DNA of 64,000 bases from an uncultured Chloroflexia bacterium (GCA_963695715.1 CAVOHP010000010.1:42749-106748); one strand, 5' to 3'; shown: positions 1,252 through 56,873, counted from the first letter of the stretch. The notes: generated from the letters alone by a model not told the origin. A program made the numbers and translations.

Positions 1252-2377
1252 TCATCCCATCGCCAGCGCGTAGGCTTCGGCCAGCTTTGCGGCTGCCGCG
1301 GCCCAACCGAACGTGGCGGCCTGCGCGCGCCCACGCTCGATGGCCTGCGCACGGCGACCGGAATCGAGCAGACCGGTTTCCATCGCTTGAGACAGCAACG
1401 CCAGATCGTTAGGCGTCACCGTGATCGCCGCATCTCCCACAGTTTCCGGCAGGCTGGACGTATTGCTGCACACGACAGGAATCCCGCACGCCATCGCTTC
1501 GAGTGGGGGCAGCCCAAACCCTTCATAGAGAGACGGGTAGACGAACAGATCGGCCAGACCGTAGAATGCGGGCAAGTCCTCATCGGCGACATATCCCACG
1601 AATTGCACGTCCGAGCCGATGCCCTCCTGCTCGACGCGCGCGTAAATCGGCTCGAACATCCAGCCTTCTTTGCCGGCAATGACGAGGCGGTGAGGCAGAC
1701 CGGTGCGGCGGCGCAAGTCGGCATAAGCGGAGATCAGCGTAGGATAGTTCTTGCGAGGCTCCAGAGTGCCCAGGGAGAGGATGAATTCCGCCGGCAGACC
1801 GTAACGGCTTCGCACCACTTCCAAAGCGTCCGTATCAACGATCGGGGTGAAGCGGTCTTCCACGCCGCCCGGTACGACGCTGATCTTCTCCGTCGCGACA
1901 TGGAGCAGCCCGATCAGGTCATCACGCGTATTCGATGAGTCCGCCAGTACGTGATGCAGCGCGCCCGATAGACTGAGGCACAACACGCTGAAGATAATCG
2001 CGCAGCGTCGGCGGCGCGCATTCCGGCGTTGTGAGAAAGGACAGATCGTGCACCGTCACAAGGCCGCGCGCCCGCGAGAGCGGCGGCAAGGTGAAATCGG
2101 GAGAGTGATAAAGATCGCATGCGCCTGCGAGCCATTCGGCGGGGAGGGGAATCCGCAGCCTTTGCCACAGCCGGGACATGACCGGCTCCGACAGCCGGAT
2201 GTTGCGAACGGCAAAATTGGCCGGCCAGGCAGACGCGTCGAGCGCCGCGCCGTATGAGAGCAACGTATACGCGTGCTCGCGGTCGAGTTCCGCCAGCGCC
2301 GCTACCAGTCCCCTGGTATAGCGCCCGATGCCCGCCGATTGCCGGAGGGCAGGCGTGTAATCAATGGCGACGTGCAC
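1252..2377 (-). pseudogene. GT1/GT4-family glycosyltransferase, split by a frameshift near 1925-1985
   Basis: ORF 1922-2377 is the N-terminal GT-B half (MHVAIDYTPAL..GIGRYTRGL). ORF 1252-1986 is the C-terminal half ([18 protein letters not shown]). The two halves overlap by 65 nt in different frames. Confidence 0.6.
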
Positions 2378-2380
2378 GGC

Positions 2381-2881
2381 TCAATGAATATCTCGATAGG
2401 TCCAGAGTCGGTTTGCGAAGAAGTTCCAGAACAGCACGATGCCGATGGCGATCACTTTGGCCGCAAGGTAAGCGCCGGGGTCCGGTAACACGGTCGAAAA
2501 CACGGGGTGAAGACCCAGCACGACCAGCTCGTTGATGCCCAGACCGATCACATTGACGATGGTGAATTGAACCAGTTGGCGGCCCAGCGGCAGACTGCGA
2601 CTCTCGGGGAAAGTCCAGAGTCGGTTCCAGGTGAAGTTGCTGACGACGGCGAAGCTGAACCCCAGCAACACGGCGACCGCGAGAGAGACGCCAAGAACCT
2701 CACGCGAGAAGGTGAGGATGGAAAGATCCACGACCATCCCGGTGACGCCGACGATCGCGAACTTGATGAATCGCACCAACTCCTGTGGGCGCTGGTCAAG
2801 CCCCAGACGGTTGATCACGGGAAGCCGGACGATGCGATCTAAAAATGGTGACATATGCGTATTGACCACGTTACCTGCCAA
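2381..2881 (-). CDS. GtrA-family polysaccharide-synthesis membrane protein
   Basis: 166 aa with 4 TM helices. Matches the GtrA pattern (RFIKFAIVGVTGMVVDLSIL..NFTWNRLWTF..NFFANRLWTY). Confidence 0.65.
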   Translation of the reverse strand: MAGNVVNTHMSPFLDRIVRLPVINRLGLDQRPQELVRFIKFAIVGVTGMVVDLSILTFSREVLGVSLAVAVLLGFSFAVVSNFTWNRLWTFPESRSLPLGRQLVQFTIVNVIGLGINELVVLGLHPVFSTVLPDPGAYLAAKVIAIGIVLFWNFFANRLWTYRDIH

Positions 2882-2892
2882 GTTGAAACCTC

Positions 2893-7288: not shown

Positions 7289-7298
7289 TTTCAATCCA

Positions 7299-9450: not shown

Positions 9451-9675
9451 GAAACTTGACAGAGCCGGCAGGCTGGCGGTCTCATCGTCCAGCGGAGATC
9501 AGATCGGCCCCGACCATCATCCCGCCGCCAAAAGCGGCCACCATAAGAATCAGCGCCATGGTCACAAGAAGGAACAGGCGCGCCCAATTCGAGCTACTGC
9601 TTTTCATCTCACCGTCCTGAGTTTACATAACTACGAAACTGCCATTGGCGACGCACACCGGCGGGGCAGGGGAGA

Positions 9676-10969
9676 TTACCTCTCCCCGCGCAACCAGGCC
9701 TCCGCCCTCGCCAATTGCGGATCACGACCGGCATCCCGGTCTTCTGCGCTCACCGATACAGGGACGTCCGGCTCGAGCCCTGCGCCGTCAATCTGCGCGC
9801 GGTTCGGAGTGAGCCAGCGCGCGACCGTCACGTGCAGGGATGAGCCATCCGATAGTTCATGGACTTCCTGCACCGAGCCTTTGCCAAAAGACTTCTCGCC
9901 GATCAACGTGGCGCGGTCGTTATCCCGCAGGGCGCCGGCGACGATCTCAGAAGCGCTTGCCGTGCCGCCGTCGGTCAACACCACGATTTCCCAATCATAC
10001 GCCGGGCTAGTAACCGGCTTAACGGCATAATAACGCTCCTGGCCGTTGCGCTTCATCTCGCGCAGCACATCGCCATCCCGCATCAACAGGCTGGAGACAT
10101 CAACGGCCGACTGGAGCAACCCACCGCCATTGCCGCGGAGATCGAACACCAGCTTTTTGACGCCGGCGTCGTTCAATTCGTCCAGCGCGCTCGCGCAGTT
10201 CCTCGGCGGTGCGCTCGCTGAACAGGTTCAGACGCGCATATCCGATGTGCGCCTGTTCATCCAGCACCCGCCATTCGACGGTCGGCGTTTCGATCCGCTC
10301 ACGCACGACGTCAATTTTGAGCGGCTCGGCCACACCTTCACGCCGCAGCGTCAGGGTCACGGGGTCGCCCACCTCGCCGCGCACCAGCGCCACGACCTCT
10401 TCAACGGTCATTTGCGCCGTGATGGGCGTCTCGTCTGCCGCAAGGAGGATATCGCCATCCTGAACGCCCGCCTTCGCCGCCGGGCGATCTCGCATCACAG
10501 TGACCTGCATATCGCCGGCCTCGTTGCGACCCAGATATGCCCCGATGCCGCCGAAATGGCCGCGCAACTCATCGCGCTCCATCTCGCGTGACACGGGTTC
10601 AACGTAAACCGTGAAACGGTCATTGTAAGCCGAAACCAGACCCCGAATCGCCGAACGTTCCTGGGCTTCTGCATTCGGGATCTCGCCCATGAAGCGCTCG
10701 TCCAGGATCGCCTGCACTTCGGGTAAGATGTGGAATCCCGCGCCGGAAGCTTCGGCCGGCGAGCCGCGGCGCCCGCCCAGCAAGTAGCCGCTCAGAAAAA
10801 CCGCGCCCAAAATCACGACGGCCACGAGGCCGGCACTCAGTCTACGCACTCTCTTGATTCCTTCAACGTGACATAATGTGCATCGCGACTCCCTGATCTG
10901 CCGGGGGAGCGTTAGGCGGCGCATAGTAGCATGGCCCCGCCTCACATACACACGTGTGGATTGTACCAC
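9676..10969 (-). pseudogene. second S41 C-terminal processing peptidase, frameshifted near 10150-10175
   Basis: ORF 10100-10969 has the TM anchor, PDZ region and ..HIGYARLNLFSERTAEEL. ORF 9676-10176 has ..VFDLRGNGGGLL..DGGTASASEIVAGALRD. Removing one base from gagcgcgctggacgaattg restores the reading ..EELREALDELNDAGVKK.. Confidence 0.6.
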
Positions 10970-11302: not shown

Positions 11303-12632
<1,330 letters not shown>

Positions 12633-12658: not shown

Positions 12659-13823
12659 TCAGAACCTCAGGGCGCGTAAGCGCCGGACGGCTTCGACGAC
12701 GCGTTCCGTCGTCTGCCCCACCGACACCCGGAGATAGCCCTCGCCGCCCGGCCCGAAGGTCGTCCCCGGCGCCAGGCTCACGCCGGTTTCCAGGAGGACC
12801 TTCTCCGCGCATTGCGCCGAGGTATACCCCGCCGGCACGCGCGGCCACAGATAAAGGCTGGCGCGGGGTTTATGGCAGCGTACGCCCCAATCATTCGTGA
12901 ACAGCATCGTAAAACAGATCCCGCGGTATTCGTATTCTGCGTTCCGCGCCGTCCATCCACGCCGCATCTTCGGTCAATGCCGCAATCGCCGCATCTTGCA
13001 CAGCGAGGAACATGCCGCTGTCTATATTGGTCTTGATCTGCGCCGAGCGCGCCGACCGCCCGCTTGTTACCAACGGCCATCCCCACGCGCCAGCCCGCCA
13101 TGTTGTGCGACTTGGAAAGCGAGTTGAATTCGACGGCGACATCCTTCGCGCCCGGCACAGCCAGCAGGCTGGGCGCAACGTAGCCGTCATAGCAGACGTC
13201 GGCATAGGGCACATCATGGCACAGCAGGATATCGTGGCGCCGGCAGAAATCCACCGCCGCTTCGAAGAAGCTCATGGGCGCAATACTGCCGGTCGGGTTA
13301 TTCGGATAGTTCAGCCACATAATCCGGGCCGTGTCGGCGATCTCCGCCGGAATTGCGGCCAGGTCGGGCAGGTAATCGTTCTCCTCCCGCAGCGGCATAT
13401 AGTACACATCGGCCCCGGCCAGGGCCGCCCCCATGCGATAGGTCGGATATCCGGGGTCGGGGACCAGCGCCAGGTCGCCCGGATCCAGCCAGGCCAACGA
13501 CATATTGGCGATCCCCTCTTTCGACCCGATGAGGGGCAGGATCTCATCGGCCATGCTCACGTCCACCCCGAATCGTCTCCGGTAATAGTCCGCCATGGCC
13601 TGCCGCAGCGCCGGCAACCCCATGAACCCCGGATAACCATGTTGCCCGGATTGCGCGCCGAGGTCGCCAGCGTCTCGATCACCAGCGGCGTCGGCGGCCC
13701 GTCCGGGCTGCCGATATCGAGCCGGATGATGTCCAGGCCTTGCGCCTGCAAGGTCTGAAGCTTGGCGTCCAGCGACGCGAACGCATATACGGGCAGTGAA
13801 TCCAGCCTCCGCGATGGTCTCAT
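12659..13823 (-). pseudogene. class I/II aminotransferase (LL-DAP/Asp aminotransferase-like), three frameshifts
   Basis: Four ORF pieces in different frames join into one protein: ..LPVYAFASLDAKL..NPGN / MGLPALRQAMADYY..SLSKSHNMAGWRVGMAVGN / ..KTNIDSGMFLAVQDAAIAAL..YDAVHE / ..ASLYLWPRVPAGYTS..YLRVSVGQ. Confidence 0.6.
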
Positions 13824-18342: not shown

Positions 18343-19198
18343 TTAACCTGGGAATGCCCCCGAGATACGCAAGCCCAACGCCGAAAGCATCATCGCCGCC
18401 CACCACCAGAAGCCGGCGCGCGTGGCGGCATACGCGTTCAGACGACCCATCACACTGAGCGACGACGCCAGCAAGAGGGCCGCCAGCAAGATGATCAGCC
18501 ACGGCGCGCCCATCCCGACTGCCGCGACGAGCACGAGCGCTTGACCCAACCACAGTACGCCGGCGCCCCCGTTTGAGGCCTCGGCGCGCAACACCCCCCA
18601 TTGAAGCACCGTATAGACGGCCGCGAGGATGTAAATCCACACCCCAAGTTGCAACAACTCCGCCGGCGCCCGGCTGTCTGCGGAGGCGCCCAACAACCAG
18701 GGCAACGCGACAGCCAACACCGCCAATGGGAGCGCCGCCGCGCCGCGACTGCGGCTCAACAGCCATGCCGCCAGGCTGACGCCCACCGCCGCCAGGCTGA
18801 GGACCAGCGCGATCTGCCCCAGCAACAAACTCAGTGCGCCGGACAGGACCAACCCGACCGCCAGATCGTGCCACCCCGAACGCACCGCGCCGTCTTCGGT
18901 GCGTTCGATCAGCGCGTCGTTCAGCCTCGCAACAGGCGCGCCCGGCGTCGCATAGGGCAACATCACTCTGCCCGTCCCCGCGCCCCGACGACTCGCCCCT
19001 TTCGCGCTCGAGTCGCCACAATGACCCCCAGGCCAATTCGGCCAGCAGCACCATTGCGAACAACCTGAGCAGTGCGCCTCCTTCAAGATAGGCCGTCCCA
19101 CCGGCAATCGCGCCCGCGAGGACCGACCACGCCGGACTGATGCGCCAGGGCGAACGCGCGACGGACAGCCGCAGACGGACGATCGGCCCCGCGGTCAT
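18343..19198 (-). pseudogene. polytopic membrane protein of unknown function downstream of cdaA-cdaR; apparent frameshift near 18960-19110
   Basis: ORF 18290-19198 gives a plausible N-terminus (MTAGPIVRLRLSVARSPW..LAGAIAGGTAYLEGGALLRLFAMVLLAELAWGSLW). ORF 18343-19107 gives the membrane body (..WHDLAVGLVLSGALSLLLGQIALVLSLAAVG..WIYILAAVYTVLQWG..). The ends of each are low-complexity wrong-frame sequence. Confidence 0.4.
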
Positions 19199-19389: not shown

Positions 19390-20405
19390 TCAAGTGATAT
19401 TGTCGTTTGGCAACGCCGCGCCGGCCGTCAGGAGCGCGATATCATCTTCGGACGCAGGTCCTGCGGGGTATGATTGCATCCCAAAACGAGTCAGGATCAC
19501 CGCGCCGAGACCCAGGGCTGCGATCAAGAGGCCGATCAGGCCGCCGAAGCAGAGCGGCAGACGGGAGAGAAACGTGATGAGGAAGACGCCCACGGCGGCC
19601 TCGAGAAATGAAGCCACATCCCGCATCTTGAACACATGCAGCAGAGATTGTCCGACCCGAGCCCGACGGCGATCCAACCGACTACGATCGCGATGAGCGC
19701 CGCGAGCCAGACGAACAACCCGAGGCAACAACAGATCAGGAGGAAGAGGCCCGCAAACCCGGCAACCGCCAACGCAAACAGACCGACGATGAAGCTCATC
19801 AAGGATTCAGTTGCGACCGTGTTGGCTACCCGCCCCACGTTCCGCGGCGCAATCAACACCGCGAGCACGGCCAGAATCGCCATTAAGAGCGACCACCCCA
19901 GCGCCTGAATCGGCCACAGGATGAGCGACCAGACGTGTGACAGCATCGGGGGACCCGGTTCAGCCGGGGTCGGCGGCGCAATCGGAGGAATGAGACGATC
20001 CGGGACCGGGAACGATTCTGTGTCGAAAAGATCTCCGCCAACCGTCGCGCCCGGCGCGCGGCTGACCGAACTGCCGATGCCGGCCACGCTGCCCCGAACC
20101 ACCGCACCCTCATCCAATGTGACACTGCCGCCAAACACAACAACGTCGCCGGTTACTGTGCCGCTCACGCTCAAATCGCCGCCCAGTACGGCGACATCGC
20201 CATTTACGACACTTTCCGCTTCGAGTTCCGCATCACCGCCGACAACCGCCAGGTTGCCGTTGATCCGGTCTCCCGCAGTCAACACGAAGTTTTCGCCAAT
20301 GACGAGCTTATCCCCATCCGGGCTTTGCGCGAAGACAACCGGAACCGCCCCCAGCAGCAGAACCGCGCACACCAGCACTGCGATCGATACACGCCGATGA
20401 ATCAT
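19390..20405 (-). pseudogene. secreted beta-helix (bactofilin/DUF4097-like polymer-forming repeat) protein with C-terminal TM region; frameshift near 19640-19730
   Basis: Start MIHRRVSIAVLVCAVLLLGAVPVVFA (signal peptide) at 20403-20405, directly after the anti-sigma stop. Repeats GDVAVLGGDLSVSGTVTGDVVVFGGSVTL. The C-terminal TM part continues in ORF 19390-19731 in another frame. Confidence 0.5.
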
Positions 20406-23402: not shown

Positions 23403-23546
23403 ATCCGGCAGGTGACTTGCCCCGCGTCGTCTGGCGTGCTAGAATCATCGTGAGTTGAAGAGCAAAGTTGTCCGTCTGCTCATTGGCTTTCTTTTTTCTT
23501 TCATTGACCGGTCACACGCGATCTCCGAGCGCGAGGAGAGGCCGTC

Positions 23547-24614
23547 ATGGCAAACGACAATCCGTGGAGCGCCGCCACGCTGGCGCCTGACGCCGGCGTG
23601 GATAGCCGTGAACCCACGCTGGCCGTCATCGGCGACGCGCTGCATCTCGCCTGGAATCGCAACAAGACGCTCTATCATGCCGTTCTCGACGGCGCTGTGT
23701 GGAGCGCGCCGGTCAGAATCGCCGAGCGGGGAGCAACCGGCCCTGGCCGTCACCCCCGATGGCAGGCTTCACTGTCTCTTCACACACAAATTCATCGGCA
23801 ACTACGAAGTGTATCACGTCTTTCTACAGGGTGGGCGCTGGTCCCTCCCCGAGCCGGTTTCGCGCACACCCGGCATTTCCACCGATCCGGCCGTCGCCGT
23901 GGCCCCCAACGGAAGCCTTCACGCGGCATGGGCCGACACAACATCCGGCGAGTCCGCGATCTATTACGGGACACTCGATGGGTTGTTCTGGACGAGTTCG
24001 CCCATCCCCAGCGGACGAGGCGCTCTCCCCACCATCGCCATCACTTCCAGCGGCAATATTCACGTCGCCTGGCAAGATCGCACCGGCGCAGCCGACCGCT
24101 ATGACATCCTTAGCGCCACCCTACAATGATAAACTCTGGACCGTGCCGCAAATCGTCTCCAACAGTCCGGCCGCCCACTCATTGCGACCGCAACTGCTCG
24201 CCGGCGCTGACACCGACTGCTACCTGGTCTGGCAGGAAGAAGCGGCAAATCTCTATCACATCCGTTATGCAGAGCGCGGCGAGACCGGTTGGCGTTCGCC
24301 CGCCGACCTGTCTCCCGGCTCGAACGATTGCCGCCTGCCCTACCTCAGTCGCAACAGCCAGAACTTCCTGCAGAGTCGTCTGGCTCGAGGGCAAACAGCT
24401 TCGCCACCGCGTGCGCCCGCCGGAAAAACAGGCCGACTGGTGGCCCGCCGAAGTTGCCATGGTCAACAGCGAGGGTCTGAGCGAACTCAGCATGATCATT
24501 GATGCACACAACCGCGTCCACGTCGCGCTGAGCGGGTACCTCGGGGCGGAAACACACGGGGTGTTTTATTGCAGTCGAAAACCCGTCCTCGAATCGGTTG
24601 TCATCACCACATAG
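23547..24614 (+). pseudogene. repeat protein with sialidase/BNR-like beta-propeller blades; three frameshifts
   Basis: Pieces from ORFs 23547, 23455, 23699 and 24126 join as ..LHLAWNRNKTLYHAVLDGAVWSAPVRIA / GEQPALAVTPDGRLHCLF..LHAAWAD..IHVAWQDRTG / ..DCYLVWQEE..YHIRYAERGETGW / ..VVWLEGKQL..VHVALSGY.. A ..hVAW/hLVW.. motif recurs about every 45 aa. Confidence 0.45.
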
Positions 24615-28223: not shown

Positions 28224-29515
28224 TTACACCGCGCCGGAAACCAGGCGCCGGCCACGGCTATGCGCCTCCGCCATGATCGTCTCCTCATCGAGTGTGAGCA
28301 GACGCCGGTCTCGCATCAGCCACTTCCCGGCGACCATCAGGTCGCTCACGTCGCGGCTTTGCGCCGTATAGAGCATGGTCTCCAACAACTCGGTTCCGCC
28401 GCTCAGCCGGGCGGTGTCCCGGTTGATCATCAGCAGATCGGCGGCGAAACCCGGCGCAAGCACCCCACTCTGCCCGAAGCCAAGCGCCGCTGCGGCCACA
28501 TGCGTCGCCATTTGCAGGCTGAACTGATCCACGGCGGCATCACGAACGTCTCTCGCCTGGAACAAGGCTGCCAGGCGCGCCTCATGCAGCATATCGAACC
28601 GGCCGCTCACCGTCGGGCGTTCCGACCCCAGGGCGACCGTGACGCCATCGCTGCGTCAGCGCGGCGACCGGCGTCGCGCCCAATCCGCTCCGGGCCTGAT
28701 ACGTCGGGCATTGCACGCAGACAACGCCCTTCGAAGCCAGGATCTCATGATCGGTTCCCGTCACGTGACTCGCATGAGCTGCAAGCACCGGCACATCCAG
28801 GACGCCGTTCCGATTGAGCATCTCCACAATCGTCATGTCATATCGCGCGAGCGCCTGATCCGCCTCGCGTTGCGTCGCCGCCAGGTGCAGATGGATGCTC
28901 GAACCCAGGCGCGCGGCCACCGCCGCCGTACGCGCCAGGAACACGGGTGAGCATTCGATCGGTGAATGCGGCCCTAATGCGGTGTGCACTCGCCCATCGC
29001 CTGCCCCCTGCCATTCTTCCACAAAGCGCGAGATGCCGGTCAAATCACGACCGAATTCGGTTTCGCGCCCGAAGGTACACCACGACAGATTGGCCCGCAG
29101 ACCGCTCTGTACCACGACCTCGGCCACCCGATCCATGAAGAAATACTGATCCGCAAAGCCGGCCACGCCATTGCGAATCATCTCACACGCAGCCAGTGCG
29201 GCGCCCCAGTAGACATCTTCGCCGGTCAAACCCGAGCCGAGCAGAAATGCCGGGTCTTCCAGCCAGCGAGTCCAGGCCGCCGCCGGGGGCCCATCCTCGA
29301 AACAATGCCATCGGGCTGTGCGTATGCGCGTTGAAAAGGCCCGGCATCACGATATGCCCGCGCGCATCCACCGTCTCATCGGCGATGAAGCCCGCCGGGG
29401 CCGCGCCCACAGCCGTGATGGCGCCGTCGGTGATCGCGATGTCCGCGTCGAACAGCAGCCGGCCATCGGCGTCGAGCGTCAGGATATCGCCATGTTGGAT
29501 GAGGATCTTGCTCAT
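28224..29515 (-). pseudogene. amidohydrolase (MtaD/SAH-MTA deaminase-like), two frameshifts
   Basis: ORF 29183-29515 has the N-terminal ..MPGLFNAHTHSPM motif. ORF 28582-29229 has the middle section. ORF 28224-28610 has the C-terminus (..GFAADLLMI.. metal-binding Asp region). The three are in different frames. Confidence 0.6.
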
Positions 29516-29612: not shown

Positions 29613-29650
29613 ATGTCCTTATCTTGACAGACCCGACGGGAGTCCTGTGC

Positions 29651-31489
29651 ATGGGCCAGTACGAAAAGCACATCTTCGTTTGCACTTATGGCCCCTGGTG
29701 TCAACGCGACGGCGACACCGAGGCCCTGACCCGCGAGCTGAAATATGAGATCGCCCGGGCCGGATTGAAAGGCAAGGTAAGGGTCAATAAGTCGGGCTGC
29801 CTCAACCAGTGCGGGCACGGGCCGATGGTGGTTGTCTATCCTGCGGGCCATTGGTATGCCCGCGTCGCCCCGGAGGACGCCCCGGAAATCGTCGCCGAAG
29901 ACATCCTCGGCGACAGGCTCGTCGAACGACTGGCGTATGTAGCTCCCCCCGGCGATAACAAAGACCTCACCGCATATCCCGCCGAACTCGTGGCTGCCGA
30001 ACAGGCCGCCAGGCGCGATGTGAATCGTCAGGCCCCTCAATTGGACACGACTACCCTGATCTTCGTTCGGCATGGCGAATCCCTGCAAAACCGGGGCGAT
30101 GTCAAGACCGAACTCGACAGCGGCCTCACAGAGCTGGGGTGGCGCCAGTCCATGCTGGTCGCGGACTGGCTGGCCCGAACCCACACCCCTGATGTCATCA
30201 TCTCGAGCACGATGCGCCGCGCTCGACAAACCGCCGACCTGATCGGGCGTCGGCTCGGTTTGCCCATCGTCATTCAGTCCGGCCTGGAGGAGGCGGACGT
30301 CAGCTATTGGAACGAATTGCCCGCTGCCCATCCGGCGGGTCCGCTGTCGCTGTGGGATGATTGCTGGCTCCCCACGGTCGAGAATGCCCCCGCGTATACG
30401 GAGTTCCGGGCCAGACTGCACCGCGCGCTGGATGAGATTTTCTCAGTCTATGCCGGAAAGACCGTCGTCATTGTATCGCACGGCGGCTCCATCGGCACCA
30501 TACTGCGCAGCCTTTTCAGCGGACATTCCATGCCGGTCTTCACCCAGAACTCCGGCGTGACGCAGCTTACCTGGAAAGATGGGCGCTGGCAATTGGTCGG
30601 CCAGAATCTGCAAGAACATCTATCTCCGTTCTTTGCCGCTCGAAGCAGCCCGGGAAACGTCGCGGATTCCGGGCGGTTTCCCTGGAACAAACCAAACGGC
30701 TTACAGGGCGTTCAGAACTACTATCGGACGGTGGCGCGCGCGCCGGAAAGTCAAGTCCTATCGGCCGCGAACGACAGCTCCCTGGTCGAGTTGCTTGCTT
30801 CGATCCAGCCCGAAGACTCCGTGCTTGAGGTCGGCTGCGGATCGGGCGCGTTCTCCCTGGCGCTTGCCTCCCGGGCGGGCCACGTCACCGGGATAGATGC
30901 ATCGGCTTCCATGCTCGAGCGCGCCGAGTTGAAACGGATCGAAGCAGGATGCAGCAATCTCGACCTCGTCTGGGCCGACGCCGCCGATCTTCCCCTGCCC
31001 GATGCGTCGCGAGATCTGGTCGCCTCGCGCGATTTGTGGAGCCACCTTGGCGCGCCGCAAGCCTATCTGTCTGAAGTCAAGCGCGTGCTGCGCCCGACGG
31101 GCCGTTTGTTGCTGGATGAACTGATCGGCAGCGCAGAACCGGTCAAGCGCGCCACCCAGGAAGCCATCGAAGTGCGCCGCAATCCGTCCTTTGCGCACTT
31201 GCCCACGCGGGCCGAGATCGAGCGTCTTCTTTCGGAGGCAGGCTTCAGAGTGACGCAGGCCGAAACCTATCCGGTCAGTCTTACGCTTAACGACTGGCTG
31301 GCCGAAGTCGCCGCCGACGAAAACACCCAGGGCGAGGTGCGAAAAATGCTGGAGGCCGGCATGGATGAGGACGCAGCCGGTTTGCACGTCCATCGCAACC
31401 GCGACGGCGCCATCAAGTTCACGCAGCAACGCCTGCGGCTCCTCGCGATCCCTGTGGCGCCCGTGACTTCTGTCAATCAATCACAGTAG
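29651..31489 (+). CDS. tri-domain fusion: thioredoxin-like [2Fe-2S] ferredoxin, histidine phosphatase (PGM family), and class I SAM methyltransferase
   Basis: Start chosen at MGQYEKHIFVCTYGPWCQ..SGCLNQCGHGP (ferredoxin Cys pattern). The middle has IFVRHGESLQN..SHGGSI (RHG phosphatase). The C-terminus has VLEVGCGSGAFSLALA..DLVWADA (Methyltransf_11-like). Confidence 0.65.
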   Translation: MGQYEKHIFVCTYGPWCQRDGDTEALTRELKYEIARAGLKGKVRVNKSGCLNQCGHGPMVVVYPAGHWYARVAPEDAPEIVAEDILGDRLVERLAYVAPPGDNKDLTAYPAELVAAEQAARRDVNRQAPQLDTTTLIFVRHGESLQNRGDVKTELDSGLTELGWRQSMLVADWLARTHTPDVIISSTMRRARQTADLIGRRLGLPIVIQSGLEEADVSYWNELPAAHPAGPLSLWDDCWLPTVENAPAYTEFRARLHRALDEIFSVYAGKTVVIVSHGGSIGTILRSLFSGHSMPVFTQNSGVTQLTWKDGRWQLVGQNLQEHLSPFFAARSSPGNVADSGRFPWNKPNGLQGVQNYYRTVARAPESQVLSAANDSSLVELLASIQPEDSVLEVGCGSGAFSLALASRAGHVTGIDASASMLERAELKRIEAGCSNLDLVWADAADLPLPDASRDLVASRDLWSHLGAPQAYLSEVKRVLRPTGRLLLDELIGSAEPVKRATQEAIEVRRNPSFAHLPTRAEIERLLSEAGFRVTQAETYPVSLTLNDWLAEVAADENTQGEVRKMLEAGMDEDAAGLHVHRNRDGAIKFTQQRLRLLAIPVAPVTSVNQSQ

Positions 31490-32461: not shown

Positions 32462-32484
32462 ACTTCATTGGAGATTATTCACCT

Positions 32485-34521: not shown

Positions 34522-35282
34522 GCGAGCCGCAGGTGAACCCGGACTTTCTCACCGGCGAACCGGATCCACAGGCGCCCGTCCTCGTTGTGGTCGTCAACAA
34601 CCCGGACGATCTGGCGCGCTTGCGCAGCGCCGGCTGGTATCGCATCCCGCAGGCGCGCGCGCCGCAGCGCACCGCCTCCGAATATCTCGCGTTCTACCAG
34701 ACCGCCGCATTCCCGCCCGACGAACGCTGGCAGATTCGCTGGTGCGCCCCGGTGCGCGGCTATTACCTGGTCAGCCGCAGAGAATTGATCCCCGAGGAGC
34801 CGCATCACCCGCGCGCCGAAGACCTGTATTACAAAGTGACGCTTGGGCCGCTGGTCGCGTTGCCGCGCCCCATTCCCAGCCGGCGGTTGCGCCGGATCAC
34901 CTTCATCCCCACCACAGTGGGGCGATTATCCGCCGCGCACGAGATCAACGATCTGTGGATTCGCGCCGGCGCCCACGAGCGGCTGTGGAATGCCCTGCAA
35001 CAGGCCGCCTGGAAGCCGAATCACGACCTACCAATCGCCGATGACGATGAAGAGCATCGCATTGACTTCGCGTTGCCCTGCCGTGACGGCAAAGTCGCCG
35101 TGATCATCGAAGACGCGCGGGAGACCGCCCGGCTCAACGAAGCCGGCGACCAGGTCATGACCTATCGGCTTGCCGCGCAGGGCTGGAGGACGCTGCGATT
35201 ATCAACCGCCGATATCAATCAGGATGCAACGGCCTGGGCGATCGCGCCTGGCCGAAATCTGCGCAGAACTGGGTGGACTCAC
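34518..35282 (+). CDS. hypothetical protein with C-terminal DUF559/Vsr-like endonuclease-fold motif; no stop codon before patB
   Basis: ATGA overlap with the upstream gene. The C-terminal region ..HRIDFALPCRDGKVAVIIEDARE..YRLAAQGWRTLRLSTADIN resembles DUF559. This frame reads directly into MTQTDYDF of patB without a stop. Confidence 0.4.
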
Positions 35283-36459
35283 ATGACACAGACCGATTAC
35301 GATTTCGATGCCATCATAGATCGCCGCAACACAGGCTCCGAGAAGTGGGACCGCTACGGACCCGACGTGCTGCCCTTCTGGGTCGCCGACATGGATTTTC
35401 GCTCCCCGCCGCCGGTGATCGAAGCCCTGCATCGCCGGGTAGACCAGGGCGTATTCGGCTACTCGTCCGGCGCGCCCGGCCTGAGAGAAGTCCTGGCCGA
35501 GCGCATGGGTCGGCTCTACGACTGGATCGTGGAGCCGGACGCCATCGTCCCGCTGCCGGGCGTCGTGCCGGGCGTCAGCCTCGCGTGTCTTGCGCTCACC
35601 CGCCCCGGCGAGACGGCCATCGCCATGCCGCCGGTCTATCCACCCATCCTGCGCGCGCCCGCGCTGACCGGCCTCATGCGCCTGGATGTCCCCCTGCTAT
35701 GCCGGGGACGACCTGCATTACGAGATGGATCTCGACGCCTTCGAAGCCGCGCTGACGCCGCAGTCGAAGCTCCTGATCCTTTGCAACCCGCATAACCCGG
35801 TGGGACGCGTCTTCACGCGCACCGAGTTACAAAGTTTGGCGGATATCTGTCTGCGGCGCGGCGTGGACATCTGCTCGGATGAGATTCATTGCGACTTGCT
35901 CTTCGCCGGTTACGAGCATACGCCCATCGCCGCCCTCGCGCCGGAGATCGAGGCGCGCACGATCACCCTCATGGCGCCCAGCAAGACCTTCAATATCCCC
36001 GGTCTGAAGTACTCCTTTGCCGTGATCCCGAATGCCGCCGTGCGCGACCGCTTCAATGCAGCACGCGCCCACCTCGTCTCCGAGCCGAATCTGCTGGGAA
36101 CGGCCGCCGCCCTGGCCGCATACGAGGCCGGCGGCGACTGGCTGGCGGCGTGCCTGACTTACCTGGAGGCCAATCGCGATTTCCTGGTGAACTTCATTCG
36201 CAGCCACATGCCGGGTATTGAGGTCGCCGCGCCCGAAGGAACCTATCTGGCATGGCTCGATTGCCGCAAGCTCGACCTGCCCTGCGGGCCGTATCCGTTC
36301 TTTCTGCAAGAGGCGCGCGTTGCGTTAGGCGATGGGGATCACTTCGGGCTGGGCGGCGAGGGGTTCGTCAGGCTCAACTTCGGCTGCCCGCGCGCCATGC
36401 TCACCGAGGGTTTGGAGCGCATGGCCGCCGCGCTGGCCGCGAGCACTGCGACCGCATAA
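35283..36459 (+). pseudogene. patB: MalY/PatB-type cystathionine beta-lyase (PLP C-S lyase), frameshift near 35690-35795
   Basis: N-terminal part MTQTDYDFDAIIDRRNTGSEKWD.. is in the 34518 frame. The remainder ..LLILCNPHNPVGRVF..SKTFNIPGLKYSF.. is in ORF 35686-36459. Confidence 0.6.
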
Positions 36460-36604: not shown

Positions 36605-38241
<1,637 letters not shown>

Positions 38242-38260: not shown

Positions 38261-39560
38261 TCAAACTGGCTTCTCGCTCGCGGCGATCAATTTCAGGCGT
38301 TGCACGGTCTGGATCATCGAGCGCACCGTGTGATAGCTGATCTTCCAGGCGTGGCCCAACGCGTCATCAATCGGGACGCCGAAACGGTCCAGGCGTTCAT
38401 ACCACTCGCCGCCCGCCGCCAGGTTGACGAACTTGCCAAACACGAAGTCGTAGACGTTGCGAAACGCCGCCCAGTACTTTCTCATCGCCGAACAGCAGAT
38501 ACGCATCGAGCATACCCACCAACAATTCAGCCTGCTGCCAGAACTGCTTTTCCGTGATGGTCGGCGGCGCATCGTGGGGGCCTTCCACATATACCCCGCC
38601 ATACTCGCGGTCAATCCCATACCGCACGCAATGATCGAAGATCGGTCGCACAACCTCCGCATATCGGCTGCGCTCATGTCCCAGAACATCCGCCGCATGA
38701 AGCAGCAACCAGGCAAATTCGACGTTGTGCCCGTAAGACGTATACGACAGTGGGCGCGCCACGCCGTCCTGGGGTTTGGCATCGCGCCCCCATTCCACTG
38801 CAAACATAATCGCGGGCAGCGGGGTGAAGTCCAGTGCAAACTGGATATACCCCGTGCCGGACTCCGGGCGCAGCATCCGGTCGGTGATCAGGGCGATGCT
38901 CTCTTCCAGTCTCCGCCGGTGCGTCGGGCTGCCCGTCAACTCATAGTGCGTGGTCAGCGCCTCCATCATGTGCATGTGCACGTCCATGCTCTTGCGGTCG
39001 CCGCCATACACGCCGGGGCGTTCGGGCTGCCAATCCCGGCGCATGATCTCGTAATATCCGCCATACCGCGTGTCAATCATGTTCTGCGCGATCGCCGCAT
39101 AGGTAGACCCGGCCGTCTCGCGACCCAACGCATGCCCGGTCGCCAGCGCGAACTCGCTGAACGCGTACATGGCAAAGCACTGACCGTAGCCGATCTTGTT
39201 CGTCACCGTGGGCTGCCCGGTGCGGTCCGCGATCCAGAACCAGCCGCCGTCCTGCGCATCCCAGTAGTGCTCGCTGATGAATTCGGCGCCCATCTGCGCC
39301 AGCTCCGCGCACTGACCGCCGCCATATCCCGCGCGATGCGCGCTCGCCATCGTGTAAAGCATCCGGATTTGCATCAGGAAGGTCTTGGTCGTTTCCCCGG
39401 TGGCGCGCCCATCGCGATCAAAATACGTCAGAAAGCCGCCAAACTCCGTATCCGGAGAACGTTCGATCCAGAACGGCAACAACTGATCCGTCAAATATCG
39501 CTCTGTGTCGTTGAGAACGGAGATCACTTCACCAGGTTCGGGCATGTTTGGCCTCCTCAC
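38261..39560 (-). pseudogene. N-acylglucosamine 2-epimerase (AGE) superfamily protein, C-terminal frameshift near 38400-38840
   Basis: ORF 38397-39560 gives the alpha6/alpha6 barrel with HYWDAQDGGWFW and similar repeats. The last roughly 75 aa (..EWYERLDRFGVPIDDALGHAWKISYHTV..) are in ORF 38261-38839. Confidence 0.6.
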
Positions 39561-40259: not shown

Positions 40260-41021
40260 ATGAGCCTGATCGGTTGGATACCGACCGTGATCGGCGTGGG
40301 CGCTCGGGCGGCGCTATACCGGCTGATTCTTCATATGGACGGCGCGGCCGCCATCGAAAACAATGTACGCTTACGCTTCACCGATCATATCCACCTCGGC
40401 AAAGGAAGTTATCTCGACTACGGGGTGTATCTTCATGCCTGCCCGGATGGCATCACCATCGGTGAAGGCGCCTATATCATGCACGGCGCCGTGCTGCACG
40501 TGTACAACTTTCGCGACCTCCCGCATGCCTTCATTCGCATCGGCAAAAACAGCCTGATCGGTGAGCTCAACGTGTTGCGGGGTCAGGGCGGCATCACCAT
40601 CGGCGATCGCGTCTATACGGCCCCGCTGGTTCAATTGCTCGCCGTCAATCATATTTACGATGACCCCACCCGCCCGATGGTGGAACAAGGGATCACCGCC
40701 GACGGCATCGTCATCGAAGATGATGTCTGGATCGGCGCAGGCGCCATCGTGACGGATGGCGTGACGATTGGCAGGGGTTCGGTCGTCGCGGCCGGCGCCG
40801 TCGTCACTTCAGATGTACCCCCGCACACGGTGGTCGGCGGAATTCCGGCCCGTGTACTCAAACAGATCGAGGGCACCGTCGCCCACTCGCACGAAGCCGG
40901 TCTACTACTGATGCCGGAGGATCCGCCCCGGCCCCATGCCAGCCGGCCCGCCCCTCGGGGTGGGCCAGGGGGAGAACCCAAATATGACGACATTGTCCCT
41001 GGTCATTCCTGCACTGAATGA
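40260..41021 (+). CDS. hexapeptide-repeat (LbH) sugar O-acetyltransferase
   Basis: Start at the internal ATG (MSLIGW..). Left-handed beta-helix repeats: [52 protein letters not shown]. Confidence 0.7.
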
Positions 41022-42264: not shown

Positions 42265-43985
<1,721 letters not shown>

Positions 43986-43989
<4 letters not shown>

Positions 43990-45787
43990 TCCAACCCATA
44001 GACACCACCGAATCGGCTGCCGCATCCGGGCGCCGGTCACAGGCCAACACGACCCGGGCGGCCGTTACGGATCGCCGATTCGTCTTGTTCTGGCTGGCCG
44101 CGCTGGCCTTCTACGCGGCGACCCTGCTGTCGTTCTGGGCCGCATATGACCGGAGCGCGGCATTCGGTAGGCTTGCCGGCCTGACGGCGGGCCTCGTTGC
44201 GGTCGGGGTGATCGCCTTCCTCGCCCGGCGCAGTCGCTACGCCCTGATTGCATGGGGCGGCATGGCCTGTCTTGCGCTTGCCGCGCTGATCGGCGGCTAT
44301 TTTCTGCTGACCTACGATTGGCAGGCCGCCGGCGCCGGCAAGGTCGCTATCATCTATCGGCTGGGCCTCTGGCTTCAAGCGGGTCGGCCCTCGATACCGT
44401 TGCCGTTCACCGAGGACATCAACGGCAATGTCGCCGGCGGCGCGATGATCCTGCTCCTCCCGCTGGGCCTGGGCGGCGCAGGCTGGCTGATCCGCAACTG
44501 TCCGTGGCCGCGGGCGATCAAAGCCGTGGTCGGCGTCATTGTCGCCATCGTCGCCCTGTTCGTGCTCGCCGCCGTCATGCTGACCCTCTCCCGCGGGAGT
44601 TGGCTCGCCGTTGCCGCGGCCACGGCGGCCGCGATCTATATGGCATGGCGAGGACGTCTGAAGGAGGATCACCTCTGGCTCGACGTGATCGCTTTCGGCG
44701 CCTTCACGGCTGCCCTCATCGGGATTTTCGCGGTCGCCGTGCGCTGGCCCGGTTCGAGCGCCGGGGTCGGCGGGCTCGAGGCGTTACTCGGCGCAGCGAC
44801 CGGCGTCGGCGGCTCCGGGGCCAGCAGAGTATCGCTATGGCGAGATATGCTGCCCCTCGTCGCAGACTATCCCCTGACGGGCGGCGGTCTGGGCAGCACG
44901 ATGATGGTCTTTTCGAGCTACGTGCTGATGCTGCACGTGGGTTTCATCGGCCACGCGCACAATCTGTTTCTGCAGATCGCCGTCGAACAGGGCCTGCCGG
45001 CCATGGCGGCCTTCGGGGTGATGACCGGAACCGCGGCATGGGGCGTCCTACGCAGCGCCGGCAGACCGGGTCGGCGGCAACGGTTCCCTGCGCCGGCGGC
45101 CATGGCGGCCATCGTCGCCATGCTCATCCACGGGATGGTGGATGCCGGACCGTGGACCAGCAAACTTGCGCCGGTAGTCTTTCTGCCGCTCGGCTTCGCC
45201 ATTGCAACGTGGGCGGCCCGATGCCGGAAAGTGTACGCTTACCGCGGAACTCCGCGCGCATGGCATGGGCTGCCGGCGCGCTGGCGCTGGCGACGGCGTT
45301 CATCATCGCCCTGCTGCCGGCCACCCGATCGGTGGTCCAATCCAACCTGGGGGCGGTAGCGCAGACCAAAGCCGAGCTCGGCGTCTATACCTGGCCGGAG
45401 TGGCCGATTCAGGATGCCTTACGACGGTCGAAACAGATTGATCTGACGCCCGCCATCCGTCATTATGAAGCCGCGCTGAAGTTGAACCCGGCCAACGCCG
45501 CAGCAAACCGCCGGCTGGGTCAGATCGAGTTATCTCTGGGAGGATACGACGCGGCCACCGCGCACATCCAGGCCGCCTTCGACGCGGCGCCCGGTCGGCG
45601 CCCGGAACGCCAGCTTCTCGGTGAGATCCGCGCGATCAACGGTTCGCCCGAAGACGCGGCGGCGTTGTGGCGCACGATATCTTTGACCCGGCAGCAATTG
45701 GACGTTCGGCATTGGTGGTACAATGAGATCGGTGAACCGGAAAAAGCCGCGCTCATCGCCGAGGGTGCAAGGCTGGCGGGCCGGTAA
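43986..45787 (+). pseudogene. O-antigen ligase/Wzy_C family membrane protein fused to a C-terminal TPR-like domain; frameshift near 45200-45360
   Basis: TTG start overlapping the rSAM stop. About 10 TM helices with ..LSRGSWLAVAAA.. and ..GHAHNLFLQIAVEQG.. The C-terminal soluble part (..AIRHYEAALKLNPANAAANRRLGQIELSLGGYDAATAHIQAA..) is in ORF 44252-45787. Confidence 0.5.
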
Positions 45788-49260: not shown

Positions 49261-50427
<1,167 letters not shown>

Positions 50428-50542
50428 TGGTTGAGTCGGGCGATTTTTACGGCAGCGGCAAGCTGCCCGATGCATCGTGGGCGGGCTACTTCTACGCTTC
50501 GCAGGCATGGGATGTCAACCCCGCCGCCGAGGTGCGCCAATC

Positions 50543-51499: not shown

Positions 51500-52930
51500 A
51501 GCGAACTGCCTGGCTTGCCGCCATGCTGATCGGCCTCTGCCTGCTGCCGCCGGCATGGTCGGTGCAGGCGCAATCAGGGACGGGCTGGAGCGCCCCGGTC
51601 GACATGACGGAAGACACCGATGTGGACAAGGGCGGTTTCAGTTACCTGTTATGCGACCCATACCAGAACGATCATCTCGTCTGGGCATCGCGCATCGGCG
51701 ATCTGGCGTACATCTATTACCAGACCGACAAAGACGGCGAATGGAGCAAACCGAGCGACGTCATCGCCACCAATGACCCCCTCGCCACCGGGCCGGTCGC
51801 CGTCATCTCGCCGGCGGACAATCGCATTCATCTGACCTGGGCCAGCACGATCTTCGGCGGCCGTCTCTACTATAGCAACGCGCCCCTCGATGCCGCTTCC
51901 GACGCCAACGCCTGGTCGAAACCGATCTTGCTCCATCAGGCCGTAGGCGGGCTATTTGCAGCGATGGCCGTTGAACCGTCCGGCGTATTGCACGTCATTT
52001 ACGGCGTGCCCAACGACAACGGGCTGCAACCGACTCTTGAGCATATTCGCTCGACCGACAGCGGCAAGACCTGGTCGCCGCCGGCCACGGTCTTCTCCGG
52101 CAATGTGCCGACGGCTTCAACAATCTACAGCCATGATGACGATTGACGACGCCGGCGTCATGCACCTGACCTACAATATCCGTTCATTCGAATACGGCGC
52201 TTACTCCGAGGCCGGATATCTCACGTCGAAAGACGCCGGGCAGACCTGGACCCAGGATACGCGCATCGGCGGCAAATCAACCACCTCGCCCGGCCTCGAT
52301 TACCTCGGCGTCTATACCTTCGGCGACGAGATTCACCTGACCTGGCACGAGCCGGCCCGGATGCATCAATACTCCACCGATGGCGGCGTCACCTGGAGCA
52401 AGCCGATGGAGATCGTCTCCCTGGGCGCGGCATTTGGCGGTTACAACAAGATCGTGAAGGACAGCGGCGGCAATTTGCGCGCCATCACCGGCGTCGCCGA
52501 TGGCCTCTACGCCGTCCCCTTCCGGAATGGCGGATGGCTCCCCCCCGAGCAGATTGACAATCGCTATCTCGATCCGCATTACTGGAATATGGTCGTGTGC
52601 GGAGGCAACAAGCTCTCCGCTGTTTTCACGGATAGACTCGGCGAAGAACACGTCTGGTATTTCACCCGACAGCTTCCCGTCGCGGCCATTGCCCGGCAAC
52701 CGATTCCAACACCCGCAGCCACATTCACGCCTTCAGCCGTCGCCGAAGCCACGCCCATCGCAACACAACAGGTCGCCGCGATATCGGCGGATGTCTCCGA
52801 TGCATCGGTCACAGAGGCCTCCGCCGCGATTCCGCCGCCATCGAATACATCAACGATGCTGGTTCTCGCCATCGCGATCCTTCCGGTTCTGGCCCTGATC
52901 GCGGGTGTATTCGCGTTCAAGCTCCGTTGA
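51497..52930 (+). pseudogene. secreted sialidase/BNR-like repeat protein with C-terminal TM anchor; frameshift near 52100-52146
   Basis: Signal peptide MKRTAWLAAMLIGLCLLPPAWSVQA. Repeats ..HLVWAS.., ..IHLTWAS.., ..LHVIYGV.. and, in ORF 51956, ..MHLTYNI.., ..IHLTWHE.. The C-terminus has a Pro/Thr/Ala-rich linker then LVLAIAILPVLALIAGVFAF. Paralogous to 23547-24614. Confidence 0.45.
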
Positions 52931-52943
52931 GATTGGATAGCCC

Positions 52944-54390: not shown

Positions 54391-54393
54391 CCC

Positions 54394-55594
54394 GTGTCAA
54401 TCCCTAGCGTCAGCGTGGTCATCCCCGCCTACAATCACGGGGCATATCTCACCCGCACCATCCAGAGCGCCCTGGCGCAAACCTGGCAAGACCGCGAGAT
54501 CATCGTGGTGGATGATGGCTCACAGGATGATACCCCGGAGGTGGCCGCGTCGTTCGGCTCCGCTATCCGCTTCATCCGGCAGGCAAACAAAGGGATGGCC
54601 GGCTCGCGCAACACCGGGATCGGCCAGGCGCGCGGAGAGTTCGTCGCTTTCCTCGATGACGATGACCTCTGGGAACCTGAATATCTGGCGCACGTCATCC
54701 CGGCCCTGAAGCAAGACCCCGCCGCCGGCGCGGCGCGCGCCGGTTTCCAGATCATGGACGGCGCGGGAACGCGCCTGCCCCAGACAACTCATCTCGAAGT
54801 CGCGCCCGACCAAATGTACGATCGGTTGATTGACGGTGGATTCTTCCCTCCGTGCACGGTCACCGTTCGCAAAGCCGCCTTCGAGAAGCTGGACGTCTTC
54901 GACACGAACCTGCAAGGGCTGGCCGATTGGGACATGTGGCTGCGCATCTCACGAGAGTATCGCTTCCTCAGTGTGCCGGAAACGCTGGTGCTGTATCGGG
55001 TGCATGGCGGAGGGCTGTCCTCGAATGTCGAGCACATGTTCACCGACCACCTCAAAGCCGTGCGAAAACACTTCGGGCCGGAAGAGGGCGACCCGGTGAC
55101 GTGGCCCACAGACCGTCGGCGCGCGTATGCCGCAGCTTACTTCAGCGCGGCCCTCGCTTACTATCAGAAGGGTGACGCTGACCCTGGGCGATCAGCAACT
55201 CACCAGGGCCCTTCAGATCTACCCACCTCTGGCGCAACGCGTCGATGTGTTCTACGAATTGGCGCTCGCCGATCAGCCCCGCGGCTTTCGCGGGTTCGCG
55301 GCGTCGGACGAGCTGGCCGAACGCGCCGCGTTGCTCTACGCCAGGATCGAGACCGTGCATGCCTCTGCCGGCCCCGAAATGGCCGGCTTTCATACCGTGG
55401 CCGTTGCCAACGCAGATCTCGCCCTGGGCATGTTGGCCGACCAGGCCGGCGATTGGCCGCAAGCCCGGCATTACCTGCTGCGCGCCGCGCGTGCAAACCC
55501 GAGGCTTCTGACGAACGCATCCTTTACACGCCGCCTGGCAAAAGTGACCGCAGGCAAACAGGTCGCCGGCCTGGCGCGCCGGCGTTCAGGCTGA
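54394..55594 (+). pseudogene. GT2 glycosyltransferase with C-terminal helical (TPR-like) domain; frameshift near 55130-55200
   Basis: N-terminus VSVVIPAYNHGAYL..VVDDGSQDDT..DDDD. The C-terminal about 140 aa (..ALQIYPPLAQRVDVFYELALAD..) are in ORF 55127-55594. Confidence 0.55.
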
Positions 55595-55609
55595 CACACC
55601 TCAGGCATC

Positions 55610-56873
55610 ATGAAATTTCTCTTTCTCTCGAACCTTTACCCACCCGCTGAGATGGGCGGACTGGAACAGATCTGCGAAGAAGTCGTGCACGCCGTTCCGC
55701 GCCGCCGGGCACGAAGTCATCGTGCTGACCGCCCGTCACAGCGCCGAACGCGCCCCCGCCGACGAGCAAGGCATCGTCCGCACGCTGCACTTGCAAGCCG
55801 ATGTCAGCCACTATCGGCCCGCGGACTTCTTCTTGCTGCGTAGGTCTCAGGAAGAGGAGAACCGCGCGGAGCTCTCGCGCCTGATCCGTGATTTCCGCCC
55901 CGACATCATCCTGGTGTGGGGCATGTGGAACCTGAGTCGTGCCCTGCCGGCGCTCGCCGAAGCACTAATGCCCGAACGGGTAGCCTACTATATGGCGTCC
56001 TATTGGGCCAACGACCCCGATATCCACGTCGAATACTGGACCAAACCCGCCTCCCGCCCATTGACTCAGCTTGCGTTCAAGCCGTTCCAGCTTGCAGCCC
56101 GGTCACAGCTCCATCACGAAGCCTACCCACCGAAGCTGGCGTTTCGGAACGTGGCCTGCGTCAGTCAATACGTGCGCGAGGCGCTGGTCTCCGGCGGCAA
56201 GATATCCCCCTCTTCCGAAGTGATCTTGCTCGGCATCCACCCCGAGGACTTTGTGTGCGCCGGCGAGGCGCGGCAGCCGGCGGCGGATGGCCGGCTGCGC
56301 CTCCTCTACTTCGGGAGCCTGCTCGAGAAGAAGGGCGTCCACACGGCGGTCGAAGCGCTCGGGCTGCTGAAACAACGCGGACAGCATACCAACCTCCAGC
56401 TCACCATCCTGGGCGGCGGCCACCCCGATTATGAAGCGCACCTGCGCCGCCGGATTGCCGAGCTCGGCCTGCAAGATCACGTATCCATGCACGGGCGTGT
56501 CGCCAGGGATGAAGTTCCCTCCTGGTTGGGCCAGTCGGACGTCTTTTTGTTTACCTCAATTTGGCCCGAGCCGATGGCGCGCAGCGTCATGGAAGCGATG
56601 GCCGCCGGTATGCTCGTCATCGGTACGGAAGTCGGCGGCCAGTCCGAGATGCTCGTCCACGGTCAGAACAGCCTGACGTTTCCGGCCGATGACGCCGCGA
56701 CGCTCGCCGACCGGATCGCGCAGGCCGCCTCCGATCCGGAAGCCGCCCATCGTCTGGCCGCAGCCGGTAAGCAGCTCATCCTGTCTGATTTCGTCATGAC
56801 GCGCTATTTCGACGAACTCGAAGACTGGCTTCGAACCATCAATGACGGGCGCGAGGCGGCCAACCGATCATGA
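55610..56873 (+). pseudogene. GT4 family glycosyltransferase; frameshift near 55700-55845
   Basis: The N-terminal 30 aa MKFLFLSNLYPPAEMGGLEQ.. are in ORF 55610. The remainder ..LLYFGSLLEKKGV..EPMARSVMEAMAAGMLVI.. is in ORF 55722-56873. Confidence 0.6.

Follow-up and report, generated by a model that had tools for sequence, protein, structure and literature searches.

Single-base frame breaks across an Anaerolineae metagenome contig, very probably sequencing or consensus errors rather than signs of gene decay

A 64,000-nucleotide stretch of DNA from an uncultured Chloroflexia bacterium (GCA_963695715.1 CAVOHP010000010.1:42749-106748; hereafter the window) contains many otherwise conserved genes that are split into overlapping open reading frames (ORFs). 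Frameshift-aware alignment to intact orthologues located 43 one-base frame breaks in 23 of the approximately 60 genes, at positions 459 to 55694. With high confidence, we attribute these breaks to sequencing or consensus errors of a noisy, probably long-read metagenome assembly and not to decaying genes. This explanation is favoured because insertions outnumber deletions by 37 to 6, nonsense codons are absent, the ratio of nonsynonymous to synonymous substitution rates (dN/dS) is unchanged, the seryl-tRNA synthetase gene serS is hit nine times, and the same pattern is seen elsewhere. An earlier reading of the sequence alone (the original prediction) had counted at least 30 frameshifts across about 20 genes, a real signal that proves to be an undercount, and had offered pseudogenisation or assembly indels as causes; the latter is strongly supported by the present data and the former is not. 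It had also held that sequence alone could not decide between the two, which was too pessimistic, as the window itself shows which way the frames change and that stop codons are absent.

Detection and catalogue of the frame breaks

The window is 62% G+C and densely packed with genes on both strands. A Pfam scan showed that these comprise housekeeping genes and a large surface-polysaccharide cluster; a tmRNA adjoining smpB and three tRNAs are also present. The elongation factor EF-G encoded in the window is 72–74% identical to EF-G of Anaerolineae and Chloroflexota metagenome-assembled genomes (MAGs), and the source organism is an uncultured Chloroflexota of the class Anaerolineae.

A codon-usage model was trained on long ORFs and run as a seven-state Viterbi decoder to produce a frame map of the window, which displayed many same-strand frame switches without coinciding stop codons. 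Translations along the Viterbi path were then scanned against Pfam. In the repaired translation of an aminotransferase, positions 2–361 of Aminotran_1_2 formed one match across three junctions, and positions 1–345 of Amidohydro_1 formed one match across two junctions in an amidohydrolase. One junction each was crossed by GTP-bdg_M (in HflX), Peptidase_S41, Glyco_transf_4, GlcNAc_2-epim, BNR_2, Radical_SAM, and a second Aminotran_1_2 match. Proteins from four moderately related MAG loci likewise matched successive frames of the window. Single Pfam domains that span junctions, and relatives' proteins that continue from one frame into the next, establish that the split genes are real.

The best database matches of the repaired SerS were intact proteins of 426–429 amino acids with 86–87% identity, and the contig encoding the best of these belongs to GCA_038214535.1 (locus L161), a close relative that is gene-for-gene syntenic with the window at 78–96% amino-acid identity and has each gene as one ORF. 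Loci L161, L164, and L166 of this assembly cover window positions 1–16 kb and 27–64 kb; for 16–27 kb, the reference consisted only of the more distant loci L002, L003, and L005. The corresponding genes in L161, L164, and L166 are all intact single ORFs, with amino-acid identities to the window of 78–93% for broken and 64–96% for intact genes. Comparison with orthologous loci of related genomes had been named beforehand as a check, and GCA_038214535.1 is unbroken at all corresponding genes. The split ORFs are real features of the window sequence, far beyond chance; the syntenic assembly has none over the same genes. Pieces of the GCA_038214535.1 loci recur as separate Logan contigs of run SRR19962010. 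No conspecific genome exceeding about 87–93% protein identity was found among GTDB representatives searched with EF-G, JGI metagenomes searched with the repaired SerS, or the protein database.

Individual breaks were placed with a dynamic-programming protein-to-DNA aligner that allows codons of two or four nucleotides, applied to each reference protein and the matching region of the window. Noise in a whole-region DNA alignment to GCA_038214535.1 (84% identity) prevented identification of the particular base inserted at each site. The events are distributed as nine in serS, six in a radical-SAM gene, five in the aminotransferase, three in a BNR-like protein gene, and two in the amidohydrolase gene. 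One event each occurs in the genes for DUF402, a GT4 glycosyltransferase, CtpA-1, CtpA-2, HflX, a membrane protein, a beta-helix protein, a hydantoinase, p250, PatB, AGE, a hexapeptide transferase, WzyTPR, Wzt, a BNR surface protein, a GT2 glycosyltransferase, and a second GT4; the remaining event adds a G immediately ahead of the TGA that terminates a 123-amino-acid gene. The per-gene counts of the original prediction were about right, with some too low (three rather than five in the aminotransferase, and fewer than were found in serS and the radical-SAM gene); additional events were located in DUF402 (459), p250 (35238), the hexapeptide transferase (40872), and GT4 (55691). The density of approximately 0.7 events per kb of coding sequence corresponds to roughly Q31, counting frameshifting indels alone. 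All positions below come from the frameshift-aware alignment to orthologues, with any further basis given after the semicolon.

459..462 (+): extra base, DUF402 gene (57-582); L166 orthologue
1957..1960 (-): extra base, GT4 glycosyltransferase gene (1255-2179); Glyco_transf_4 runs across the junction
9490..9493 (-): extra base, ctpA-1 (8326-9607), severing the N-terminal membrane anchor; homologues of 426-470 amino acids against a 375-amino-acid ORF
10195..10198 (-): extra base, ctpA-2 (9679-10825), ambiguous over about 10175-10198; Peptidase_S41 runs across the junction
12221..12224 (-): extra base, hflX (11306-12530), repair giving AQYEYRLPRL; GTP-bdg_M runs across the junction
12905..12908 (-): extra base, aminotransferase gene (12662-13823)
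12927..12928 (-): missing base, aminotransferase gene
12953..12956 (-): extra base, aminotransferase gene
13044..13047 (-): extra base, aminotransferase gene; Aminotran_1_2 continuous across junctions
13642..13643 (-): missing base, aminotransferase gene
18985..19015 (-): extra base, membrane protein gene downstream of cdaA/cdaR, resolved to about 30 nt; L002, L003, and L005 orthologues
19657..19658 (-): missing base, beta-helix/bactofilin-like membrane protein gene (19435-20402); relatives' proteins in successive frames
23721..23724 (+): extra base, BNR-like protein gene (23526-24605); relatives' proteins in successive frames
24118..24127 (+): extra base, BNR-like protein gene; relatives' proteins in successive frames
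24371..24377 (+): extra base, BNR-like protein gene; relatives' proteins in successive frames
28656..28659 (-): extra base, amidohydrolase gene (28239-29515); Amidohydro_1 continuous over 1-345
29266..29272 (-): extra base, amidohydrolase gene
30018..30021 (+): extra G, 123-amino-acid gene (29651-30019), after GAT and ahead of the stop codon TGA; separate genes in L161, L003, and L005
33972..33975 (+): extra base, hydantoinase-like gene (32484-34509); one 682-amino-acid gene in the relative
35238..35241 (+): extra base near the end of the 250-amino-acid gene p250 (34557-35283), fusing its ORF to patB
35697..35700 (+): extra base, patB-like aminotransferase gene (35283-36456); Aminotran_1_2 runs across the junction
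36966..36969 (-): extra base, serS, close to its 3' end, giving a false C-terminal extension
37426..37429 (-): extra base, serS (36948-38241)
37475..37478 (-): extra base, serS
37674..37677 (-): extra base, serS
37771..37774 (-): extra base, serS
37829..37832 (-): extra base, serS
37878..37881 (-): extra base, serS
37960..37961 (-): missing base, serS
37992..37995 (-): extra base, serS
38480..38483 (-): extra base, N-acylglucosamine 2-epimerase (AGE) gene (38264-39545); GlcNAc_2-epim runs across the junction
40872..40875 (+): net +1 (one-base insertion or two-base deletion), 3' end of the hexapeptide transferase gene (40152-40908)
43138..43141 (+): extra base, B12-binding radical-SAM gene (42310-43986); relative's protein 557 amino acids
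43199..43202 (+): extra base, radical-SAM gene, within the CxxxCxxC region
43254..43257 (+): extra base, radical-SAM gene
43441..43444 (+): extra base, radical-SAM gene
43451..43454 (+): extra base, radical-SAM gene, 10 nt past the preceding event
43875..43878 (+): extra base, radical-SAM gene
45216..45217 (+): missing base, O-antigen-ligase-TPR gene WzyTPR (44010-45784); one 599-amino-acid gene in the relative
50413..50414 (+): missing base, wzt (49261-50543), close to its 3' end; relative's Wzt 428 amino acids against 388 here
52129..52132 (+): extra base, BNR surface protein gene (51496-52927); BNR_2 runs across the junction
55174..55177 (+): extra base, gene for GT2 with a C-terminal helical domain (54394-55591)
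55691..55694 (+): extra base, GT4 gene (55610-56864), close to its 5' end; relative 420 amino acids against a 383-amino-acid ORF here

Several of these sites bear on repairs or intact genes that had been singled out previously. A one-base repair had been proposed for hflX, and dropping the T after TAC in CAGTACTGAATAT indeed yields AQYEYRLPRL, identical to the relative; the alternative reading through TEY that had been suggested is the less likely repair. The one-base repair of ctpA-2 was correct as well. Two genes that had been listed as intact are not: Wzt is 40 residues shorter than the relative's protein owing to the deletion at 50413, and the 723-amino-acid ORF (ferredoxin-like, histidine phosphatase, and methyltransferase; 29318-31489), regarded as a fusion, corresponds to two genes in all relatives. 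The extra G at 30020 joins the 123-amino-acid gene to the phosphatase-methyltransferase gene and so creates a false ORF. The 110 codons at the upstream end of this ORF (29318-29650) are probably spurious too, with the true first gene beginning at ATG 29651.

Nature of the events and integrity of the repaired genes

The excess of one-base insertions over one-base deletions (37 versus 6, n = 43) is highly significant (binomial p = 1.6e-6). Homopolymers of at least four bases were touched by 0 of the 43 events, and runs of at least three by 21%, compared with 30% for random positions; replication slippage is an unlikely source because homopolymers are avoided. The indels had been described as random, but they are clustered (variance/mean of 2.1–3.1 in 0.5–2-kb bins, p < 0.0002), with dense patches at 12.2–13.7, 36.9–38.5, and 43.1–43.9 kb and event-free stretches of up to 7.5 kb, and they are mildly biased in their sequence context. 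AGCG/CGCT was found at 14 event sites in the window versus 4.3 expected (raw p = 2e-4), a mild GCG-context enrichment, and CAGCG at 8 versus 2.1 expected. In the two comparison contigs described below, CGCG was found at 16 sites versus 5.7 expected, and AGCG was enriched too. The enrichment suggests systematic error and may reflect a basecalling or polishing bias. Two other candidate signatures were rejected. The methylation-type motif GANTC/GAGTC seemed to recur at early sites but occurred at 2 sites versus 0.35 expected when all events were pooled, which is not significant (uncorrected p = 0.05). If each insertion were a strain single-nucleotide polymorphism of a third codon position that had been entered twice, 19 of 31 insertions would fit, versus 47% of simulated random insertions (p = 0.08).

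Once the one-base breaks are repaired, the affected genes carry no further damage. Alignments of 19 broken genes contained 0 in-frame stops in 7,758 codons, as did those of 24 intact genes (0 in 7,577 codons), and no larger deletions or truncations were found in the 7,758 codons of the broken genes, where only one-base indels occurred. At 43252-43254 the radical-SAM gene seemed to contain an in-frame stop, but this triplet lies between two insertions and was discarded as belonging to the wrong frame. Median dN/dS relative to the orthologues was 0.077 for broken and 0.096 for intact genes (Nei-Gojobori; Mann-Whitney p = 0.74), and the most damaged genes gave low values (0.094 for serS, 0.057 for the radical-SAM gene, and 0.050 for the aminotransferase). 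The periodicity of G+C at third codon positions is unbroken through all of the gene fragments. The serS gene, which is normally essential and single-copy, has its nine events within approximately 1 kb. Its repaired product is 86–87% identical to intact 429-amino-acid orthologues and matches solved structures of SerS over the entire length (E = 4e-124). Within the window, serS is broken nine times and hflX once, counts that refer to these copies and not to any outside the window.

The structural RNA genes provide a small noncoding sample. The tmRNA and three tRNAs showed 0 single-base indels relative to the relative's in approximately 0.7 kb, too small a sample to be informative because only about 0.5 events would be expected. 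The tmRNA (7298-7712; tag ANSGKAFTFPFARTNQLALAA), directly beside smpB (7814-8293), is 96% identical to the relative's and indel-free. The tRNA-Ser(GCU) (36605-36701) has a variable arm that is 2 nt longer than that of the relative, which may be natural variation or a small indel.

Origin of the breaks

Two contigs from other assemblies carry comparable damage. Relative to GCA_038214535.1, contig_30618 of ENA assembly ERZ25039459 (L163) has 51 events, 35 insertions and 16 deletions, at L163:3000-9900, and contig_58458 of ENA assembly ERZ25039596 (L165) has 15 events, 13 insertions and 2 deletions, at L165:500-12900. As in the window, these events lie outside homopolymers and are patchy, but they fall in other genes: serS, patB, and p250 are intact in L163, whose radical-SAM gene has 15 breaks and GT2 gene 11. 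At most two in-frame stops were seen in the L163/L165 comparison, both in L163. Three related contigs that are damaged at unrelated places, together with a fourth assembly that is undamaged, implicate the process by which the data were produced and not the lineage. The window's truncated CtpA (375 amino acids) and GT4 (383 amino acids) are already in the protein collection, where they are assigned to a 160,156-bp contig with the source given as 'NCBI, ENA', and the GT4 fragment clusters at at least 90% with that of L165.

Genuine pseudogenisation, in which a lineage in genome decay would have lost 23 genes to real frameshifts, is very unlikely given these observations. Many genes are indeed split, several of them repeatedly; some of the broken genes are accessory (polysaccharide biosynthesis, BNR proteins, and the duplicated ctpA); and an uneven distribution could in principle mirror dispensability. 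In these respects the window resembles decaying genomes such as those of Mycobacterium leprae or recently host-restricted pathogens and symbionts, with 23 of approximately 60 genes interrupted, several more than once. Decaying bacterial genomes also accumulate nonsense mutations, deletions of all sizes, and insertion sequences, their dN/dS is relaxed, and their codon bias erodes; the window showed no such additional lesions or signs of relaxation. Neutral decay that has reached five to nine indels per gene is expected to bring substitutions, stops, larger deletions, a lean towards deletion, and slippage at homopolymers, and natural bacterial indels are biased to deletions. Substitutions outnumber indels by about 10:1 in bacterial mutation-accumulation studies, a ratio at which 43 neutral indels should be accompanied by hundreds of substitutions and approximately 20 stops. 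Instead, nonsense codons, larger deletions, and truncations are all absent from the 7,758 codons, the insertion:deletion ratio is 37:6 with no event in a homopolymer of at least four bases, and dN/dS is not elevated. Nor are accessory and duplicated functions preferentially affected, as had been supposed, given that serS, hflX, the ABC transporter ATPase gene wzt, and the 723-amino-acid fusion ORF are hit too. The related contigs have their breaks in other genes, and a third relative is wholly intact.

Programmed recoding, by which +1/-1 ribosomal frameshifting, transcriptional slippage, or RNA editing would keep the broken genes functional, can be given almost no credence. It too would predict conserved repaired frames under purifying selection, and genes with programmed frameshifts (prfB with +1, dnaX with -1, and transposases of the IS3 family) similarly consist of two overlapping ORFs that encode one conserved protein. 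Programmed sites, in contrast, are conserved across orthologues and lie on defined slippery motifs; the orthologues of the window's genes are plain uninterrupted ORFs that share none of the sites, slippery homopolymers or heptamers are absent, and the contexts of the sites are unrelated to one another. Moreover, one gene can hold as many as nine sites, in places separated by just 10 nt (43441 and 43451), and no bacterial mechanism is known that would strip individual non-templated bases in dozens of contexts with nothing in common. A related scenario, in which the extra bases truly exist in the DNA of the Anaerolineae population and full-length proteins, including the SerS with nine breaks, are made through a novel correction of single inserted bases at many unrelated sites, at the RNA level or by the ribosome, is exceedingly improbable.

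A mixture, in which most breaks are errors and a few are real strain-specific mutations (some of the six deletions, for example, or the gene-end breaks within the polysaccharide cluster), is unlikely, though less so than the preceding readings. Deletions form a separate minority class, several of them fall in variable surface-polysaccharide genes (WzyTPR at 45216 and Wzt at 50413), and gene content differs among the relatives. The candidate sites are nevertheless indistinguishable from the others, with repaired proteins that are 79–90% identical over their full length and dN/dS of 0.06–0.17, and a minority of deletions in L163 and L165 as well indicates that deletions belong to the same error profile.

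Error during data production thus remains the preferred explanation. Under it, sequencing or assembly of the contig would have introduced the frame breaks while the organism's own genes are intact. The error process would mostly add one spurious base at non-homopolymer positions and act in patches. These may reflect low coverage or strain mixing, being the places where a consensus built from few reads or from several strains would be expected. Gene callers would break up every affected gene into overlapping ORFs, and errors at gene ends would fuse or truncate neighbouring ORFs. The window is like long-read assembly artefacts in that one-base indels split conserved genes into overlapping ORFs with no other damage and the orthologues in accurate assemblies are intact, MAGs from metagenome assemblies being typical victims. 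An insufficiently polished long-read (Nanopore or PacBio-type) assembly is the likely source, as the names of the comparison contigs resemble Flye output and gene-fragmenting indels are known of long-read assemblies, the latter being stated in a passage of PMC12007338 that cites Watson and Warr 2019. A tie to a particular long-read project would be a guess: the ERZ, GCA, and SRR accessions had no match in literature and supplement searches.

Several points weigh against this explanation. The errors are deduced indirectly, from alignments of the sequence. The window and the ERZ assemblies are connected only indirectly, through common protein clusters and the 'NCBI, ENA' source. The dN/dS values are averaged over a long divergence (dS of approximately 0.8) and would miss constraint that was lost only very recently. 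Real strain-specific mutations could account for a minority of the events, such as the six deletions or the breaks in accessory polysaccharide genes. Lastly, the insertion-dominated, homopolymer-avoiding, strongly patchy, and mildly GCG-biased profile of the window departs from the best-known case, that of Nanopore, for which the consensus errors in the literature consist chiefly of homopolymer deletions (PMC12007338).

Consequences and neighbouring observations

The breaks have little biological import, as the organism's genes are almost certainly normal, but annotation of the contig would be marred by dozens of spurious pseudogenes, by truncated proteins, and by two or more false fusions (the 723-amino-acid ORF and p250-patB). 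Estimates of genome completeness and metabolic inference would be distorted, with seryl-tRNA synthetase and the radical-SAM enzyme seeming to be missing. Since at least two other related public contigs are affected likewise, protein databases built from them hold fragments. Either polishing or an annotation that takes frameshifts into account is needed for the contig and for relatives assembled in a similar way, and the insertion-biased, non-homopolymer, patchy error profile may merit a report to the maintainers of the source assemblies.

The comparison with relatives also revealed differences in gene content. Synteny with GCA_038214535.1 stops just upstream of der, at approximately 16.2 kb (L166:2392-3420), beyond which that assembly carries genes for a DDE transposase and for unrelated dehydrogenases in place of cdaR/cdaA. 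A sulfotransferase gene lies 3' of the ligase-TPR gene in the window (45800-46375) and in L163 and is absent from GCA_038214535.1. Conversely, genes for an acyltransferase (339 amino acids) and a hexapeptide transferase (194 amino acids) are present in GCA_038214535.1 and not in the window, the corresponding sites being 55590-55610 and 58083-58109. The GT4 encoded at 58100-59311 shares 64% identity with its counterpart in GCA_038214535.1, whereas the remaining genes in that comparison share 77–96%. All 2-kb bins have a negative GC skew (21,442 C versus 18,484 G), irrespective of gene strand; the + strand genes at 29–64 kb are on the C-rich strand, and no switch in skew was seen within the window.

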